Shown in pieces: positions 5,753 through 12,867 of a stretch of DNA of 12,867 nucleotides; position 1 is the stretch's first letter, and every line of letters begins with the position of its first letter. The stretch covers positions 1-12,867 of the forward strand of contig JASFYY010000040.1 of assembly GCA_045046875.1 (NCBI GenBank). The letters run 5' to 3'. The notes below the pieces were generated by a model that did not search any database, was not told the DNA's origin, and saw nothing but the letters and a program-made list of their open reading frames with translations. The position numbers were made by a program, and so were the translations under genes. Origin of the DNA: Verrucomicrobiota bacterium. Its GTDB lineage: Bacteria > Verrucomicrobiota > Verrucomicrobiia > Verrucomicrobiales > DEV007.

Positions 5753-5801
5753 TTAAACTCTTTTTTTGAAGCGCCTGCGTTCTACCTATATAATTCCCCC
5801 C

Positions 5802-6281
5802 CTAAATAACAATCCCCGTAATATCCCCTTCAAAAACCATTTTATCATTAACAAAACCCTGGGATTCAAATACCGCAATTCTCGATCTCAGTTTTTTCGC
5901 TCTTGTGATCATGAGAAAATCACATCCCGGTTCCACACTGCCACGAAACTTCACATTATTTACCCCGGCGAAACCAAAAAACTTTTTCCCGCCGGTATTA
6001 AATTTCAGGTGATAAATAACCGAACTCAACTGAGCCGCCATTTCTATCATCAACACACCAGGCATGATCGGGCGTCCCGGAATATGCCCTCGAGTCCAGA
6101 ATTCCTCGGCAGTCTGTTTTTTGATACCCACAGCAAGCCCTTGCTCGAGATCTAGTGAAATCAGTCGGTCTAATTGCTCAAACTCTTCACGCTGCGCATT
6201 CAGTTCAAGAATCTCTTCTTTAGTAACAGCCACTGCATCTAAGTTGATGTCAGCCAGTTCCAAAATCGGTTGTGATGCCAT
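5802..6281 (-). CDS. fabZ: 3-hydroxyacyl-ACP dehydratase, FabZ/FabA hotdog family
   Basis: RGHIPGRPIMPGVLMIEMAAQ (catalytic His and Glu of FabZ type) and VKFRGSVEPG; start placed at ATG 6281. Confidence 0.85.
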   Translation of the reverse strand: MASQPILELADINLDAVAVTKEEILELNAQREEFEQLDRLISLDLEQGLAVGIKKQTAEEFWTRGHIPGRPIMPGVLMIEMAAQLSSVIYHLKFNTGGKKFFGFAGVNNVKFRGSVEPGCDFLMITRAKKLRSRIAVFESQGFVNDKMVFEGDITGIVI

Positions 6282-6523
6282 TATGTCTAATCCAATCAAT
6301 TACGTGTTAAAATTGCCCCTTTGATACAGGCCGTGGACGAGAACCAAAAGACCGACGCCCCTATCACATACTATCAGAGTGCGTTGACTGCTAGAAATAA
6401 ATGGTAAGCATTTGCAGTTGTGAACCCCCTCAGGAAAAAACGAGAAGCATTTATTTCCAACAACGGTCACAAATACCCACCTCCGGCCTACTTGTATGCT
6501 ACCCTCCCAAGTCCTTCGACATC

Positions 6524-6787
6524 ATGGAAATCACCAACAAAACCAAAAAGCCTCTCAGGGTTCCTCTTCCAGCCGGAAAAAAACTCTTCTTGAACCCGGG
6601 AAAGTCCGGACAGATCACCCCGGCGGCGGCCACACGTCCTGCTGTGGTTAAACTGATTGAAACAGGAGACGTTGAACTCTCTGAAGAGGGCACCAAACGA
6701 CAAGGTGGAGATAGTTCCGGCAGCACCGTTTCCAGTGTTTCACGCGACGGTAGATCCGGAGCCATGCGGCAGTCCGGTGACAAATAA
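6524..6787 (+). CDS. Small hypothetical protein (87 aa)
   Basis: MEITNKTKKPLRVPLPAGKKLFLNPGKSGQI looks protein-like, with a G/S-rich disordered tail; best ORF in the gap between fabZ and the 6901-8652 gene. Confidence 0.65.
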   Translation: MEITNKTKKPLRVPLPAGKKLFLNPGKSGQITPAAATRPAVVKLIETGDVELSEEGTKRQGGDSSGSTVSSVSRDGRSGAMRQSGDK

Positions 6788-6900
6788 GTGGCGCCCCTTA
6801 GCCGTAGTCATTATTACTACGCCAACTCACGTTCACGTGGCAACGCCCTTTTCCTCCGTGAGCTGCCACATGAAGCACTTATCTTCACTGGTGAAGTAAT

Positions 6901-8652
6901 TTAACGAGATCGGGCTCCGTTGACGATGATCGTGACCGTGGCCTTACGATCCACCAAAGGCGCTGTTCCACCAATCACATAGGTGAATGTATCGACGATC
7001 GAACCACCTTCGCCTACATTCCGGAGAGTCGCCGAATCCGTCGGATCGTAGTCGAAGCTCCCGTCCGCGTTCACTTTAACTACAGCCCCTTTCGCACTGA
7101 GGGCATCATAGTCAATCACATCAGTGACCGGCCCCAAAACTGCCGCACGGACTTCCTGTAAGGTGAAATAATTTTTTCTCTCTCTGCTTGAATTCCGGGC
7201 AATGATACGGATCTGGTCAATCGTCTTACCCACAGCCAGCTCTACGTCCGTCGTAGAAACCCGCAGATGTTGGGGAGCGCCATCTGGTATTGCCAAGCCT
7301 GTGGCAATACCCTGGGATTTCCCCCCGCTGAGAAACTCGACATCAAAATCATTGTCACGGTTAACGCCTCGTGCATAGTCAATGCGGCCATACAAATCAA
7401 ACACCAGCTTCCCACCTTCAGCGAGCATCACTTCTGCTGCAATGTCATAGGTGATGATGACCGTCTCGCCAGCCGTCTCCTCAGTGTGAAAAGAATTAGA
7501 TTTTGAATAATCCAATTCAGGCAGTGATACCGTCGGATCAGAAGGGTCATAGGCAAATCCATCCGTCAGTGTGTTGCCTATCGATGACTCATTGTTAATG
7601 ACGGTAGCCACAGGCAATCCGTCCGATAACCTCACGGCGGTTGAATCAGTCAAGGTCAGCTCGCGAAAGTTCTGCAGGACACCGCTAAGGGCGGCATCCT
7701 CATTGGTGCGAAAAGTATTGCTCCGCCCACGCCCATTAACTGTGACAGTAACCGTGGCGGTGCGATCTGCCAGCGGTGCCTTACCGGCGACCACATAGGT
7801 GAACGTATCGTCAAGCGATTCACCTATGTTCAAAGCCTGGAGAGCGATCGCACTCGTCGGGTCAAAACTGAAACTCCCATCCGCGTTCACCACCACCTCC
7901 GCTCCGTTTTTACTGGTGGCATCGTGGCTTATTACCGCCGGCGAAACGGTCTTCAAGAACGCTGCCCGGACTTCCTGTAAGGTGAAATAATTAGGGTCGC
8001 CAAGCCCGTTTGAATCCCGCGCAACGATCCGAATCTGATCAACCGTAGTTCCTACATCCACTGACGCTTCAATCGTCGACACTCTGACGTGCTCGGGAGA
8101 TGGCGGGTATTGAGCTGCTTGAATAATTACTCCCGCAACGGTATTCCCCACAATCACTCCATCACTGAGAAATTCCACGTCAAAATCATCATCCCTATCA
8201 GGGGGGGCCGTTGGTTTGCTTCCATACAAATCAAACACAATCACCCTACCTGCAGTCAGGGTTGTCCCGGCAATATCGTAGCTAATGATGATTGTCTCAC
8301 CGGCTGGCTCGTTAGCGACAAATGAATTTTTCGCCGAGTAATTCAGCGCAGGCAACGTGGCAGTAGGATTCAGGGGATCGTAAACAAATCCATCAGTCAA
8401 CGTATTGCCAATCAGGGTACGTCCATAGGTCGTCACAGGCAGTCTATCCTGCCCTACCGCCATCGGATTGCTCAGCGCAAGCGTCAATTCGTTCCGTAAC
8501 ACTCCTGGAGCTGCCACATTCAGTGCTTCGTTTTCATCCGTGGAGTAGTTCGGATCGTCTTTCACCAGTGCCTGTCCCCGACCACTGGTGAGCGATATCA
8601 GCAGTGTTGCGAAAATCGCGGCTATTCTGGGAACTCGATAGCTATGTTTCAT
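6901..8652 (-). CDS. Secreted protein with two tandem VCBS/cadherin-like Ig repeats, each carrying an inserted ~180-aa domain
   Basis: Signal peptide; DD..Y.TDE...GVL.N and GA.V.VNADGSF..DP...L..GE...DTFTY...ATVT..VNG occur twice; 26-bp exact internal DNA identity at 7148-7173 and 7967-7992. Confidence 0.85.
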   Translation of the reverse strand: MKHSYRVPRIAAIFATLLISLTSGRGQALVKDDPNYSTDENEALNVAAPGVLRNELTLALSNPMAVGQDRLPVTTYGRTLIGNTLTDGFVYDPLNPTATLPALNYSAKNSFVANEPAGETIIISYDIAGTTLTAGRVIVFDLYGSKPTAPPDRDDDFDVEFLSDGVIVGNTVAGVIIQAAQYPPSPEHVRVSTIEASVDVGTTVDQIRIVARDSNGLGDPNYFTLQEVRAAFLKTVSPAVISHDATSKNGAEVVVNADGSFSFDPTSAIALQALNIGESLDDTFTYVVAGKAPLADRTATVTVTVNGRGRSNTFRTNEDAALSGVLQNFRELTLTDSTAVRLSDGLPVATVINNESSIGNTLTDGFAYDPSDPTVSLPELDYSKSNSFHTEETAGETVIITYDIAAEVMLAEGGKLVFDLYGRIDYARGVNRDNDFDVEFLSGGKSQGIATGLAIPDGAPQHLRVSTTDVELAVGKTIDQIRIIARNSSRERKNYFTLQEVRAAVLGPVTDVIDYDALSAKGAVVKVNADGSFDYDPTDSATLRNVGEGGSIVDTFTYVIGGTAPLVDRKATVTIIVNGARSR

Positions 8653-8833
8653 AAAGATTCCCCGCCTCTTAAACGAGGTTGTTTCAATGTGCTGGAACTC
8701 CTCCTATAAATTGGACACAGGGAGGTTAATCCGATCGGTTTTAATTTAAGGTGATTGTTTCAAGGTTAAAGCATTTTCTTGGTTTAGGCTTTTACCTGAT
8801 CCCATCCCGCTTTTCACCTATTACCCGCCAGCG

Positions 8834-8858
8834 AAAATTCAAAAGCGGACTCGTCCGC
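8834..8858 (-). terminator. Probable intrinsic terminator downstream of the outermost tRNA 3'-end copy
   Basis: Minus strand GCGGA-cgag-TCCGC followed by TTTTGAATTTT. Confidence 0.5.
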
Positions 8859-8879
8859 CATAGCCTCGGCGACGGCGGA
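8854..8879. repeat. REP-like palindrome TCCGCC-ATAGCCTCGGCGAC-GGCGGA fused to the att core
   Basis: 6-bp inverted arms with an inner GCC-tc-GGC; related to 3151-3172 and 2340-2374. Confidence 0.6.
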
Positions 8880-8976
8880 AGGAGTGGGATTAACTCCCGC
8901 TTGTAGCAACTCGTTGATTATCAAAGGTTAAGTTTTCACCTCCGACAAATTAACTTACACCCGTAACTTACAGATT
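8874..8976 (-). repeat. att site copy A: tRNA(Ser)-like 3' end + IHF site + arm-type repeats
   Basis: Minus strand AATCCCACTCCTTCCGCC (T-loop end, T-stem, acceptor stem, G discriminator). 93/103 identical, ungapped, to 11329-11431. TAACTTACA at 8951-8959 and 8964-8972. Confidence 0.85.
8907..8919 (-). promoter_or_regulatory. IHF-binding consensus in att copy A
   Basis: Minus strand AATCAAcgagTTG is a perfect WATCAANNNNTTR match. Confidence 0.65.
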
Positions 8977-9273
8977 TACACGAATACTTTGACAGAAATT
9001 TGATTGGCTAAACACACAGGTGAGGACCACTTAGCGAGAGTTGAAAAACGCTGCGGTATCCAGCCCATCCGAGAATGGACAACAATGGATGCCACCTTTC
9101 CATCAGACATCAATAGAAGACAGATGATTTCCTCGGCTATAGCCTCTCTTTCCTTGCACGTCCGATTCCACTGTTTTGACTTTAAAACCTGGCACAACAC
9201 GTGGCCGTGTTTTTGAGCTTCAGCTCCGTTTACACATATCTAATCAATTGAATTCTTACGAAACTTTATTAGG

Positions 9274-11016
9274 ATGAGCTCTATGTATAAAAAGAATATC
9301 CTTATTTCATGGCTGCCGGCACTTTCGCTTTATTTCAGCATGTTTTCATATTCAAATTTAGGAGTAGCGCAGGACACAGTTTTCAACATTCACAACGATT
9401 CCAGCAGTGTTCCCGACGGCTTCATAATATTCGATTCCAATGGAAACATCATAGAATATGATTCCAATGGAAACGTCACCAACAACCCAAACTGGCTCGA
9501 TCCTTCTTTCGAACCTTCATCAGTCTGGCTCGATGATTATCAGGGTTATGAAAGCCGTGATATTCGCTTTAGAACCAATCAATCAGGAACGCTGGCGCCC
9601 TTGCTGAATGCGGGTGACTATAAAAAATCCGTAGACGACAACTCGGGTCGTCAAATACTGCTAGCTCCTCCCAGCTTGGCCATAGGTATCGATATGATTT
9701 TCTCCACAGTGGACAGCGGATTAGGCATGGGGCTCATCAACCAACAACTTATCCGCGGCGCACCCGATGCTGCCTTGAGAGGCTTGAATACCCGCTTGTT
9801 CAGGGCTCGATCTGGCATGAAGCCTCAATCTACAGCACAGACCTCTACCTTTTCAGGCAATTCAAGTTTACTTCGCTACTTTGCCTTTGTTCAAGACGAA
9901 CACGTGGACTCCAAAGTGGCCCTTGGTCTGGCTGATGGGGTGGAGCGTACCATCGAGGTCAAAATGATTGACTCACTGAGTGCTCAAAATGGCATCAATA
10001 TGCACAATCAATCTCATGTAGGCGGCTTACCTTATGCATTACTAGCTGCCCCACTGGTCAGTGGCGCAACGACTGTAAAAATCATTGAAGCCGGTCCTTA
10101 TGATGCAAAAGTCCTTGATAGGGCCAAATCCGTAATCGAAACCGCGCCAACTAAACGCTGGGAAGCTTTTGTTTCTGGAGATTTCAGCCATTATGACCAG
10201 GACTCTTTGGACGAAATGCTGGAGAGCTTTGACACTGAAACATATGCTGGCAGCATTGGCGTTGAATACCACGCTAAAGAGTGGCTTAACATTGGCCTAG
10301 CTTGGACCTATCTGCAAAGTGAAGCCGCGGGATTGGGCGGCCTAGGAGACTTAGATCTCAACGGCAATCTAATTTCAGCTTATGCCACTGGCTTCTGGGA
10401 TCAGAACTGGGCCGATATTCTTTACAGTTACGGTTCCTTCGACAGTGATATCCTTCGCAACACAGGCCTCCTTGGAGGCAAGGCACGGGGAGAAACGGAT
10501 AGCGACAGCCACAATATACGGCTCAATATCGGCCGCAATATCCAAGTGACAAATAACATCGTCACTGGACCCATAGCAGGACTGCGTTACTCCAGTGGAA
10601 GCAGTGACCCATACAGTGAAAACGGAGGTGGGCTAGCCATGCTTAATTACGACGACACAGATTTTGAATCGATGCAAAGCCAAGTGGGCTGGCAGGCGAG
10701 CCACCTGCGTCCAACTGGTTGGGGACGCATCGTATCACAAGTGCACCTTGGCTGGGAACACGAATACATGCCAGAGAATGGCACGGTGGGAGTATCGATG
10801 CAGACCTCACCTTTTACCCTGGGAGGAAAACGAGTAGGTGGATTTTCCGCTGAGAGTGATGGGGAACATCCTGGCACAGACTGGATGTCAGCGGGAGTGG
10901 GACTGAGTTTTGAACTGGACCGCGGTTGGACTTTTTTAACCGACTACCAAGGCGCGTTCTTTCGAAGCGGTTCGACACAGCATTACGTCTCAGCAAAAGT
11001 GAATTACAAGTGGTAA
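9274..11016 (+). CDS. Autotransporter (type Va) outer-membrane beta-barrel protein with short passenger
   Basis: Signal peptide ending GVA-Q. The C-terminal ~285 aa show an amphipathic beta-strand pattern (GSIGVEY, YSENGGGLAMLNY, QVHLGWEHEY) and end in VNYKW. Start could be 9274 or 9283. Confidence 0.9.
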   Translation: MSSMYKKNILISWLPALSLYFSMFSYSNLGVAQDTVFNIHNDSSSVPDGFIIFDSNGNIIEYDSNGNVTNNPNWLDPSFEPSSVWLDDYQGYESRDIRFRTNQSGTLAPLLNAGDYKKSVDDNSGRQILLAPPSLAIGIDMIFSTVDSGLGMGLINQQLIRGAPDAALRGLNTRLFRARSGMKPQSTAQTSTFSGNSSLLRYFAFVQDEHVDSKVALGLADGVERTIEVKMIDSLSAQNGINMHNQSHVGGLPYALLAAPLVSGATTVKIIEAGPYDAKVLDRAKSVIETAPTKRWEAFVSGDFSHYDQDSLDEMLESFDTETYAGSIGVEYHAKEWLNIGLAWTYLQSEAAGLGGLGDLDLNGNLISAYATGFWDQNWADILYSYGSFDSDILRNTGLLGGKARGETDSDSHNIRLNIGRNIQVTNNIVTGPIAGLRYSSGSSDPYSENGGGLAMLNYDDTDFESMQSQVGWQASHLRPTGWGRIVSQVHLGWEHEYMPENGTVGVSMQTSPFTLGGKRVGGFSAESDGEHPGTDWMSAGVGLSFELDRGWTFLTDYQGAFFRSGSTQHYVSAKVNYKW

Positions 11017-11063
11017 GAGTTTGTGAAGTAATCCGCTCATCCGGGAGAACAACGTTTGTTTGT

Positions 11064-11094
11064 TCACTTACATCATTAACTTACAGCGTAAGTT
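11064..11094. repeat. Arm-type repeat pair at the right end of the mini-island
   Basis: TCACTTACA (11064-11072) and TAACTTACA (11077-11085) have the same 13-bp period as the pairs at 8951/8964 and 11406/11419; an inverted GTAAGTT follows at 11088-11094. Confidence 0.75.
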
Positions 11095-11149
11095 TTTCCC
11101 TTCCGACATTTCCTCAAACCCTAATTCCATGGGAGTTGAGCGCGCAACC

Positions 11150-11166
11150 GCGGAAGGAGTGGGATT
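11150..11166 (-). repeat. att core copy B (tRNA(Ser)-like 3' end, CCA not intact)
   Basis: Minus strand AATCCCACTCCTTCCGC then GG; 17 bp identical to copies A and C. Confidence 0.85.
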
Positions 11167-11327
11167 GCCATCGCTTCGCTCAGGCTGTCTCCGCTGCGAC
11201 GCGTCAGCGTTCGATAAATAGCGAAGCCTTTTTGCGGAGCCGCACAAGTGAAACGCTGCGCGGATAAACTGCCTTCTTCTCATCCCACGACTGACGGCAG
11301 TTCGCTCCCTGCTCCGCAGGGACGAAA
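11167..11327. repeat. Structured GC-rich spacer between two tRNA 3'-end copies (180-bp period; tRNA-linked-repeat-like)
   Basis: Hairpin TTCGcTCCCTGC-tcc-GCAGGGACGAA (11301-11326); AACTGCC/GGCAGTT inverted pair (11267-11273/11296-11302); ATCCCAC (11282-11288) is complementary to the core GTGGGAT. Confidence 0.55.
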
Positions 11328-11431
11328 TGGCGGAAGGAGTGGGATTAACCTCCACTTGTAGTAACTCGTTGATTATCAAAGGTGTAATTTTCACCTCCAA
11401 CACATTAACTTACACCCATAACTTACAGATT
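11328..11431 (-). repeat. att site copy C: tRNA(Ser)-like 3' end with CCA + IHF site + arm-type repeats
   Basis: Minus strand AATCCCACTCCTTCCGCCA (11346-11328); TAACTTACA at 11406-11414 and 11419-11427; ~90% identical to copy A. Confidence 0.85.
11362..11374 (-). promoter_or_regulatory. IHF-binding consensus in att copy C
   Basis: Minus strand AATCAAcgagTTA is a perfect WATCAANNNNTTR match; the only difference from copy A is at the degenerate R position. Confidence 0.65.
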
Positions 11432-11531
11432 CCAACGACTAATTCAGTCCTGAAGATTAATATAAAAAATAGCTCAGTTTCAGGGATCAGCTCATATCAC
11501 CCGCCATGATATATACTCACAAACTCCTAAA

Positions 11532-12152
11532 TTAAATTGCCTCGTAGGTTTCGTTGTAAATCGCTGACAATGACTTGCCATTAAATTCCCAATAGGATCC
11601 TGGTGCCACTCTGTAAGGCAAATCTAAGAGCATGCGGGTGACCTGAGATAATGATGTTTCCTCTTCATCATAATTCACCTTCCGCTCAGAAGCGACAGTT
11701 ATGGTGGCGTCCCCTTGGGTAAAGTGAAGAGTAGATCCTATCGGGATCCCCATCTCGACAAAATTTAGCGCCGGCCGCCGTTTGATTAATTTTTCGCTAG
11801 CCTCTTTTGATTCGATATCCACCTTTTCCGCTTCCTCTCGAATATCCGGAGTCACATCCTCTATTATCATCAACTTAAGAAGAGCAATAGCCTGATCAGG
11901 ATCAATTTGGAAAAACTCACGCTTTGGATTTAAACGGTATGGCCCAAATGCTTGGTGGAACGCACGCTCCACAACATTCTCGTCCTCTACCCTGCCAGCA
12001 AATGCGCACTCGAATGGCACGGGAACACCAGTCGAATACAACTCGTTCAATCTAGTGTCCACACCATTTCGCGCCGTCTTGCCAATCTTCACCAAGCCTG
12101 GCATAGCGGGGTTTGTAAGTACGTAGATGATTCCAGGTTCCTTATTGCTCAT
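11532..12152 (-). CDS. GIY-YIG nuclease (T5orf172-like) with RAMA/DUF4357-like C-terminal domain
   Basis: GIIYVLTNPAMPGLVKIGKT...RLNELYSTGVPVPF...VE...H...REFF is the T5orf172-type GIY-YIG signature; C-terminal SLS...GSYWEFNGKSL. Start placed at ATG 12152. Confidence 0.85.
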   Translation of the reverse strand: MSNKEPGIIYVLTNPAMPGLVKIGKTARNGVDTRLNELYSTGVPVPFECAFAGRVEDENVVERAFHQAFGPYRLNPKREFFQIDPDQAIALLKLMIIEDVTPDIREEAEKVDIESKEASEKLIKRRPALNFVEMGIPIGSTLHFTQGDATITVASERKVNYDEEETSLSQVTRMLLDLPYRVAPGSYWEFNGKSLSAIYNETYEAI

Positions 12153-12292
12153 ATATTTGCAACATTTCAGAATTATCAGCCTGAGGTCAACATGATTCTG
12201 GCTTCCATCCGAATTGAATTGCCATGTCAAACCTCGCCAACTAATCTGCCAGCGATGCTGGCATTTTCGCAGCAGGACAAATAAACTTTGAG

Positions 12293-12631
12293 ATGAGAAT
12301 TCTAACCTGGAATATCCAACATGGTGGAGGCAAGCGGATAGAGCAGATATTCAAAGCTCTTTGCCCTTACAAAGCTGACCTGATAGTCTTGTCGGAATTT
12401 CGCCAAAACAAAGCGTCCGACAGATTGAGTGCGCTCCTCAGAGAAGCAGGCTACCTCTATCAGTCTGCGCAGCATGCGCCAGCCACGAGTAACATTGTAT
12501 TCGTTGCGGCTCGACGCCCCTTCGAAGCAATAACGTTTCCCGGTCAACCTGGGGATGAAGAGTTTGGAGATTTCACAAATCGCATTCTCCTAGCACGAAT
12601 TGAGGGATTGAATATTTTCAGCCTCTACTTA
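12293..12631 (+). pseudogene. Endonuclease/exonuclease/phosphatase (EEP) family gene, 5' part, interrupted by IS630
   Basis: MRILTWNIQHGGG and DLIVLSEF are EEP motifs. The gene is cut after SLYL at the TA 12630-12631; the C-terminal GDxN and SDH motifs are missing. Confidence 0.8.
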
Positions 12632-12867
12632 CTAACCCGGCGGATAATTAACATGCATACCTTATCGTTTCAGCTTTAAAGTAACTGGCTATTCTTGCAG
12701 GCATTTTTTGGAGTGAACGCATGACGCTGCGTGCGGTTTTTTTGAGTGCTCCTTTTTCGCGGAGGTCTGGACGTTTGGCGATTTGATACTTTAAATCGCA
12801 ATTAAGAAATTCGTCCGGATTAAGATCAGGCGAATAACTTGGCAGGTATTTCAACGTGATTTTTTTA
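12632..12867 (-). mobile_element. IS630-family insertion sequence, one end (continues beyond window)
   Basis: Transposase C-terminus followed by a short terminus TTATCCGCCGGGTTAG abutting a TA dinucleotide, the IS630/Tc1 target. Confidence 0.85.
12648..12866 (-). CDS. IS630-family DDE transposase, C-terminal part (5' end outside window)
   Basis: ITLKYLPSYSPDLNPDEFLN matches the LP.YSP.LNP.E signature that carries the catalytic Glu; ends YF....IRYAC. Confidence 0.92.
   Translation of the reverse strand, partial: KKITLKYLPSYSPDLNPDEFLNCDLKYQIAKRPDLREKGALKKTARSVMRSLQKMPARIASYFKAETIRYAC

Follow-up and report, generated by a model that had tools for sequence, protein, structure and literature searches.

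Cis-mobilizable elements (CIMEs) have been described as elements that lost their recombination and transfer genes and kept their attachment (att) sites (PMC5704250). In Streptococcus salivarius, CIMEs of 1.2-13 kb and microCIMEs of 130-220 bp have been reported, both most distant from the target gene (PMC7563491), and in Dehalococcoides 15 islands at ssrA carry no integration genes and were proposed to be mobilizable in cis (PMC3146451). The window analyzed here, a stretch of 12,867 nucleotides (nt) that is the whole of contig C40 of a Verrucomicrobiota genome (G000), holds a cassette (8875-11166) with one intact autotransporter gene between two copies of the 3' end of a serine tRNA gene. An original prediction, made from this stretch alone, had presented it as a minimal element that keeps all its cis sites and is mobilized in trans as a small circle. 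With a probability of roughly 60%, this integrase-less, att-bounded cassette at the far end of a stack of insertions is instead likely the remainder of an island of a DUF6538-type tyrosine integrase, moving mainly in cis with an integrase-bearing neighbor. On this best reading it is a CIME and adds to a known kind of passenger element, linked to an integrase family that has been little studied; the cassette is ordinary in kind and unusually well resolved.

The likeness to the streptococcal CIME and microCIME arrays extends to the absence of recombination and transfer genes, the att sites, the size class and a small gene-less neighbor (PMC5704250, PMC7563491), as well as to the position of the cassette, which is most distant from the target gene and adjoins an integrase-bearing element (PMC7563491). 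Unlike in the streptococcal case, the neighbor has no detected conjugation genes and is thus not shown to be an integrative and conjugative element or an integrative and mobilizable element (IME), the host is verrucomicrobial, the integrase is of the DUF6538 type, and the deletion origin of the cassette is a presumed one (PMC7563491). The cassette itself is no IME, as these have their own excision and integration genes and it has no integrase inside. The Dehalococcoides islands are likewise tandem and bounded by copies of the end of a structural-RNA gene, but their target is a transfer-messenger RNA gene and their enzymes are serine recombinases, and the part of that paper drawn on here does not mention arm or integration host factor (IHF) sites (PMC3146451). 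The tycheposons of Prochlorococcus, marine tRNA islands, also show successive integrations separated by partial tRNA copies; they encode their own integrase, many of them with replication genes, whereas the cassette has neither (bioRxiv 10.1101/2020.12.28.424599).

The cassette is bounded by exact copies of a 17-bp core, GCGGAAGGAGTGGGATT, at 8875-8891 and 11150-11166 (2275 bp apart). The reverse complement of this core forms the 3' end of tRNA-Ser(CGA) on contig C49 of the same genome (C49:73901-73990). Four exact copies exist in the genome, namely this tRNA end and three in the window, the third of which (11330-11346) was absent from the original prediction. A match with two mismatches on contig C59 has no att context, and no tRNA gene was found in the window. 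Inside each cassette end stands a direct pair of arm-type 9-mers with a period of 13 bp, at 8951 and 8964 in the outer end (8951-8972, plus strand; 59 and 72 nt from the core) and at 11064 and 11077 in the tRNA-side end (11064-11085, plus strand; 77 and 64 nt from the core), and a third pair of the same period begins at 11406 and 11419. With at most one mismatch per 9-mer, all such pairs in the 5.6-Mb genome (3 of 3) lie inside the window, where about 0.013 would be expected, and the pattern, matched three times in the window, was never matched in 200 shuffles. The consensus of IHF boxes is WATCAAN4TTR; a scan of the window found exact boxes at 8907-8919 on the minus strand and at 11362 and no other. 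Taken alone the box is weak evidence, since 17 of 200 shuffles reach two matches. The repeats equal to a tRNA end, the paired 9-mers and the perfect left IHF box had all been foreseen correctly.

The two ends of the cassette are of different kinds. The outer one is a full attR: its core forms the chromosome junction (8875-8891, minus strand), as judged from the exact tRNA match and the empty site described below, and is followed by what appears to be the remainder of a 7-bp, T-loop-sized spacer with an inverted core-type half-site (8892-8903), then by the IHF box, which has the same place in five aligned attR-type ends, and by the arm pair, positioned as in the attR of the integrase-bearing islands of genomes G055 and G074. 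A similar end, which has an IHF box (11362-11374) and an arm pair (11406-11427) too, lies behind the third core (11330-11444, plus strand) and is the attR of the tRNA-proximal island; the 116 nt from 11329 are 87% identical to the 116 nt from 8874 (8874-8989). The core-type half-sites are symmetric around a 7-bp spacer in the tRNA (GTGGG-7 nt-CCCAC), at 8875 (GTGGG-7 nt-CCCGC) and at 11330 (GTGGG-7 nt-TCCAC); the outer half-site at 11150 is not. The tRNA-side end, in which the inner core (11150-11166, minus strand) has the attL role for the cassette, contains a third, inverted arm-like site (~11089-11095) and a conserved block between 11086 and 11149, recognized by comparison with a metagenome contig (L055). 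Its arm offsets of 64 and 77 are within 2 bp of those of autonomous ends (66 and 79 at the C49 integrase end), and no IHF-like box with up to two mismatches lies between core and arms, whereas the autonomous Ser(CGA) ends have one in 4 of 4 cases at 0-2 mismatches. Autonomous islands have arm repeats and IHF boxes on both core sides, the cassette arms on both sides and IHF on one. Of the complete attL/attR pair that had been proposed, the exact cores and the arm pairs at each end hold, so that attL and attR are both present, and the IHF box at the tRNA-side end is missing; the claim that all cis sites were kept fails on that box and on the asymmetric half-site. An Rfam scan of the cassette ends gave no match. 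A short palindromic repeat framed by GCGGA adjoins the core both in the chromosomal flank (8846-8879) and within the cassette end of L055 (951-983).

That the cassette belongs to a stack of insertions is seen from an empty site, which the original prediction had suggested looking for in relatives. In a genome of the same genus (G005), contig C255 joins the C49 side including the tRNA (95.0% over 7985 nt) straight to window positions 5800-8891 (94.0%), and therefore all DNA between C49:73989 and C40:8892 is inserted. From the tRNA outward the stack consists of a 626-amino acid (aa) DUF6538 tyrosine integrase, an Xre-type gene, an unknown gene, a XerC-like recombinase, an unassembled gap, a T5orf172 gene, the core at 11330, a 163-bp hairpin unit, the core at 11150, the cassette, the core at 8875 and the chromosome. 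The cassette is the member most distant from the tRNA, distal to the integrase-bearing element. The hairpin-rich unit (11167-11329, minus strand; 180 bp with its core) is gene-less, present as a single copy in the genome and of the size of a microCIME, and related tRNA-linked units lie behind the same tRNA in G017, G055, G140 and G024. The T5orf172-domain gene (11532-12230, minus strand; PF10544, E 9e-16) is cargo of the tRNA-proximal island.

The candidate enzyme is encoded at C49:74091-75968, starting 100 nt after the tRNA, and combines a DUF6538 with a Phage_integrase domain. Its catalytic residues are present (R430, K468, H540, R543, W566, Y576), and its modeled fold matches the lambda and Tn1549 integrases with E about 2e-7. 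Between tRNA and integrase start lie an IHF-like box and two copies of the arm 9-mer, one with two mismatches at offset 66 and the other at 79; the tRNA with the core as its end, and the nearest candidate tyrosine integrase, which the original prediction had left to be located, are thus found in one place, where the integrase end has the arm repeat of the cassette. Homologues of this integrase (E up to 1e-30) occur in 8 of 133 other family genomes, with one more in G001. GTAA(G/A)TT arms were found at 4 of 4 closest loci (G000:C49, G055 and G095 at tRNA-Ser(CGA), G074 at tRNA-Sec), and CACA-type arms at 7 of 7 more distant loci (27-31% identical where measured), six of them at tRNA-Cys and one at tRNA-Ser(TGA) in G000; these 11 loci were compared by eye, and as kin share traits, the agreement is a match of arm type with integrase type and not a test of co-evolution. 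As the genome has only two DUF6538 genes (C49 and C54), the C49 integrase is the only arm match. The C54 integrase was rejected as a helper on account of its different arms. It belongs to a 13-kb DUF6538-integrase island at tRNA-Ser(TGA) (L083, G000:C54:67507-80787) whose two ends both carry CACA-type arms and which is followed by a 141-bp unit. In two complete islands (G055, 4.1 kb; G074, 19.4 kb) a C49-type attL is paired with an attR laid out like the outer end of the cassette. Two genes of the HU/IHF family are present in the genome, and no directionality factor was identified for the DUF6538 system here.

A series of erosion can be laid out along these loci: the integrase is intact at C49, broken by stops or frameshifts in G055, G095 and G074, replaced in G023 by a transposase-like open reading frame (ORF) directly after the arms (no attR was found there within 59 kb), and missing in the cassette. 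The cassette interior has a single Pfam-matched ORF, the intact autotransporter gene (9274-11016, plus strand; 580 aa; PF03797 at residues 299-559, E 2e-35). Four paralogues of it, 55-59% identical, exist in the genome, and neither a core nor an arm pair lies within 4 kb of any of them. Inside the cassette, no gene for an integrase, a relaxase or conjugation was found. A second component is a decayed left end of an IS3-like insertion sequence with the start of orfA (9099-9226, minus strand), which matches a transposase remnant on G001:C53 at 74% identity across 128 nt and was assigned to IS3 by eye from its translation. This remnant points to insertion and deletion inside the element, and it qualifies the earlier description of a single-gene cassette, which stands as regards one intact gene. 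A non-coding motif of 35-50 nt at 9040-9090 recurs in G001 at 80-86% (L026 7385-7433, L023 14469-14503), once as one arm of an inverted pair.

Evidence for recent movement comes from a sequencing run (X4), in which one 2470-nt contig covers window 8909-11346 with nine differences in 2438 bases (99.6%; depth 23.9). The flank contig of the same run, covering 7800-8830, has 55 differences and two gaps in 1031 bases (about 5%; depth 21.8). Of 31 flank differences compared, 29 equal G005; these were taken from 40 listed differences after seven beside indels and two from another contig were dropped, with 65 outside the list. Sister-lineage alleles extend in the flank up to 8837, X4 differs at 8892-8908, right behind the outer core on the cassette side, and the rise to 99.6% identity comes only beyond the att site. 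A G005-like population thus carries a near-identical cassette, whereas the G005 genome has the empty site. The 180-bp unit has no differences from the window in X4, and the contigs of X4 and of run X5 stop matching exactly at 11346 and continue for 7 and 10 letters. A near-identical cassette and unit beside a flank about 5% divergent indicate recent transfer, and the unit without differences indicates that it traveled with the cassette, a finding that a lone 2275-bp circle leaves unexplained. No joint of 11166 to 8892, as such a circle would have, and no skipping of the cassette was seen in the contigs of X1, X2, X4, X5 and X6, which drop rare forms. The proposed lone circle mobilized in trans therefore finds no support. 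Window 11349-12531 was uncovered in X1, X4, X5 and X6, a coverage hole that proves nothing.

Taken together, co-transfer of the unit favors mobilization in cis over a lone circle. In the proposed mechanism, the integrase would bind the TAACTTACA arms via its N-terminal DUF6538 domain, its catalytic part would act on the core sites flanking the tRNA T-loop, and IHF would bend the DNA. As the complete attL of the island would be the best partner for the attR of the cassette, recombination between the tRNA-side end of the island and the outer end of the cassette could excise the whole stack as one circle, which would then integrate at an empty tRNA. Later the island may depart alone through the site at 11330, leaving unit and cassette stranded. 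The layout resembles that of lambda and of KplE1 with its integrase IntS, in which core, arm and IHF sites are combined and the integrase gene starts beside the tRNA-side attL, as at C49; it is unlike them in its integrase, which has 626 aa, DUF6538 and a long helical insert, and in the T-loop, of which only 3 of 7 bases are common to the tRNA and the three window cores (PMC2951348). For lambda, partner sites must be fully identical over the 7-bp overlap (PMC2817482), which they are not here if the T-loop is the overlap. With so few common bases, exchange would have to tolerate mismatch in the manner of IntDOT of CTnDOT, which is also an arm-binding tyrosine integrase with overlap regions of little identity; CTnDOT is a Bacteroides conjugative transposon, unlike this element, and mismatch tolerance is suggested here by junction sequences (PMC2817482). 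Alternatively, crossover could occur in the identical 3' block instead of the T-loop.

Several observations weigh against this reading of the cassette as a CIME moved in cis. C49 and C40 are unjoined in the assembly, with the middle of the island unassembled, and their link relies on the empty site of G005. No single X4 contig bridges flank and cassette, the path between them being one of short overlapping contigs, and X4-X6 come from one study, in which a mixed population is possible. Neither tblastn with three integrases nor two integrase profiles detected an integrase remnant in the cassette below E 0.5, and no remnant of an integrase start was found by profile behind the cassette arms, so that direct descent has no such witness. 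Relaxase (PF03432) and coupling protein (PF02534) genes were not found in the 95%-complete genome. The predicted role of DUF6538 has a weak structural counterpart: the arm-binding domain of the high-pathogenicity island integrase (3jtz) aligns with the model at Z 4.2 (root-mean-square deviation 2.4, 50 residues aligned), none of the fold matches reach Z 5, and unrelated folds tie. Finally, the tRNA-side end does not resemble a decayed attL of the C49 type: it is identical to the C49 end at 42 of 85 positions, and a profile of the four autonomous ends does not match it at E up to 5. It is rather matched at 70 of 91 positions (77%, ungapped; window 11064-11154) by L055, a 3.3-kb metagenome contig with an unrelated interior and no integrase beside the arms, a likeness that would fit a maintained, cassette-specific end.

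This match is the main result favoring an alternative, namely that the cassette is a dedicated satellite, from a family of integrase-less cassettes with a tRNA-side end of their own (three arm sites and no IHF box), that is kept by selection, forms a lone 2275-bp circle and is mobilized in trans by the DUF6538 integrase. The conserved arm spacing would agree with this idea, as would the similar outer end before a sulfatase gene at a non-tRNA site in G001 and a second outer-type end on the same flank in X4, where a 4713-nt contig (depth 12.2) matches the window only over 8842-8982. Nevertheless, the tRNA-side end has only two examples: no third was found by pattern in 400 genomes of the order, 400 genomes of the phylum gave three short weak matches only, and viral contigs gave none. 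The far end of the L055 cassette lies beyond its contig, and its tRNA side is an unrelated integrase island. Together with the co-transferred unit and the asymmetric half-site at 11150, this makes a dedicated satellite unlikely, if the best placed of the alternatives. In the region behind the arms, L055 599-763 (non-coding) matches G001:C53 (L026 7742-7901) in three reordered blocks at 83-90%.

Another possibility is that the cassette is a recombination-dead remnant that natural transformation spreads, with homologous recombination acting in the flanks and in the tRNA. The genome has a ComEC-type gene, the lack of relaxase and coupling protein and the missing IHF box of the tRNA-side end would also fit, but homologous replacement should bring donor flank, whereas in X4 the sister-lineage alleles persist up to the att site, and arm pair and IHF box of the outer end match perfectly. 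This explanation is accordingly quite improbable. That the mover is instead the XerC-like recombinase of the island (C49, 340 aa) is very improbable indeed: the gene is part of this island, and in the G055 island a broken ORF resembling it was seen by eye, but its domains are limited to SAM-like and catalytic ones, an additional N-terminal domain to bind arm sites is missing, and arm type tracks the DUF6538 integrases. An integron gene cassette, whose attC hairpin end is recombined as single-stranded DNA, was rejected as a model, as the outer ends fold no better than shuffles (z -0.6 and -0.1); the tRNA-side end folds weakly (z -2.6 and -2.7) and its L055 homologue does not (z -0.8). None of the three findings named in advance as fatal to the original prediction arose, that is, no tRNA ending in the core, the autotransporter at this locus without these ends in relatives, or a decayed integrase inside, and the cassette is integrase-less as predicted.

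Searches for the same ends elsewhere gave few relatives. The outer-end pattern had no matches in metagenome contigs. The core followed by AAC matched two genome loci, one viral and one metagenome locus. Two of these seem to be chance hits inside genes, a third is an att end whose arm repeats differ, and the fourth is L055, found by luck, as the AAC there starts a hairpin unit. The arm-pair pattern matched 11 of 134 family genomes, with several control matches; inspection by eye showed that, G000, G001, G003 and G023 apart, these were due to chance or had no clear relation. The G001 end (G001:C133; L023 10269-10380) is of the outer type with IHF box and arms, lies at the 3' end of an aminotransferase gene with a T-loop-like 7-mer, and has the sulfatase gene next to it; its partner was not found in 19 kb. 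In G003:C103 (L025 8595-10180), arms and a tRNA-Ser core accompany a Fic gene with type I restriction gene remnants on either side. This was rejected as a second satellite and read as an eroded island because of the ends of type I restriction genes inside; its arm pair resembles a hybrid of attL-type and attR-type arms. Searches of the literature for Verrucomicrobia genomic islands at tRNA-Ser with an integrase, and for tRNA-linked repeats, returned nothing relevant.

Further observations concern the surroundings. Gene-less hairpin units of ~100-180 bp that end in a tRNA 3' copy recur behind serine tRNAs in several family genomes, single or in tandem (window 11167-11329; L028 10214-10560; L102 11864-12367; L072 10100-10257; G000:C54:80787-80928). 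Upstream of the intact tRNA-Ser(CGA) gene, both G000 and G005 have a second, partial copy of it (L001 7644-7716). In the tRNA-proximal island, window 12293-12679 holds a perhaps truncated exonuclease/endonuclease/phosphatase-like ORF of 128 aa below the Pfam cut-off. At the other side of the window, 218-292 repeats, in degenerate form and without a core, the arm region of the outer end with the bases following it (72-74% to 8957-9031); it adjoins a genome-wide multicopy repeat, G005 is unaligned left of 296, and it is possibly an older stranded end. Just upstream of that repeat, 46-90 has a weak Rfam match to Acido-Lenti-1 (33.3 bits, gathering threshold 37). A 583-aa secreted-looking protein with no Pfam match is encoded at 6901-8652, with two internal repeats ~820-840 bp apart.

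Integrase-less tRNA islands are mostly called from direct repeats alone. Here the evidence comprises arm sites with an IHF box and a candidate cognate integrase, for which a second integrase of other specificity in the genome serves as a control, and in addition an empty site and a copy that crossed species recently; three short att sites with one enzyme make mobilization in cis versus trans directly testable. Two leads are new, a cassette end common to another contig and DUF6538 as a likely arm-binding domain. A model of the N-terminal 80 residues (mean predicted local distance difference test score 89.7) has strands at 7-10, 13-19 and 40-44 and a helix at 50-76. Lambda integrase (1z1b) aligns with this model at Z 4.1 (root-mean-square deviation 6.4, 59 residues aligned), Foldseek returned nothing at E 0.001, and a full-text search for DUF6538 with integrase, which most subscription journals lie outside, found no paper. 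DUF6538 in this way gains a testable function. A wider and doubtful proposal is that DUF6538 is the arm reader of widespread long tRNA-targeting integrases, each with its own arm code, which are pirated by purpose-built minimal satellites with an IHF-free tRNA-side end. If this were true, such satellites would exchange single genes, for instance those of surface autotransporters, among species of verrucomicrobia, in the way of an integron that uses lambda-type sites.

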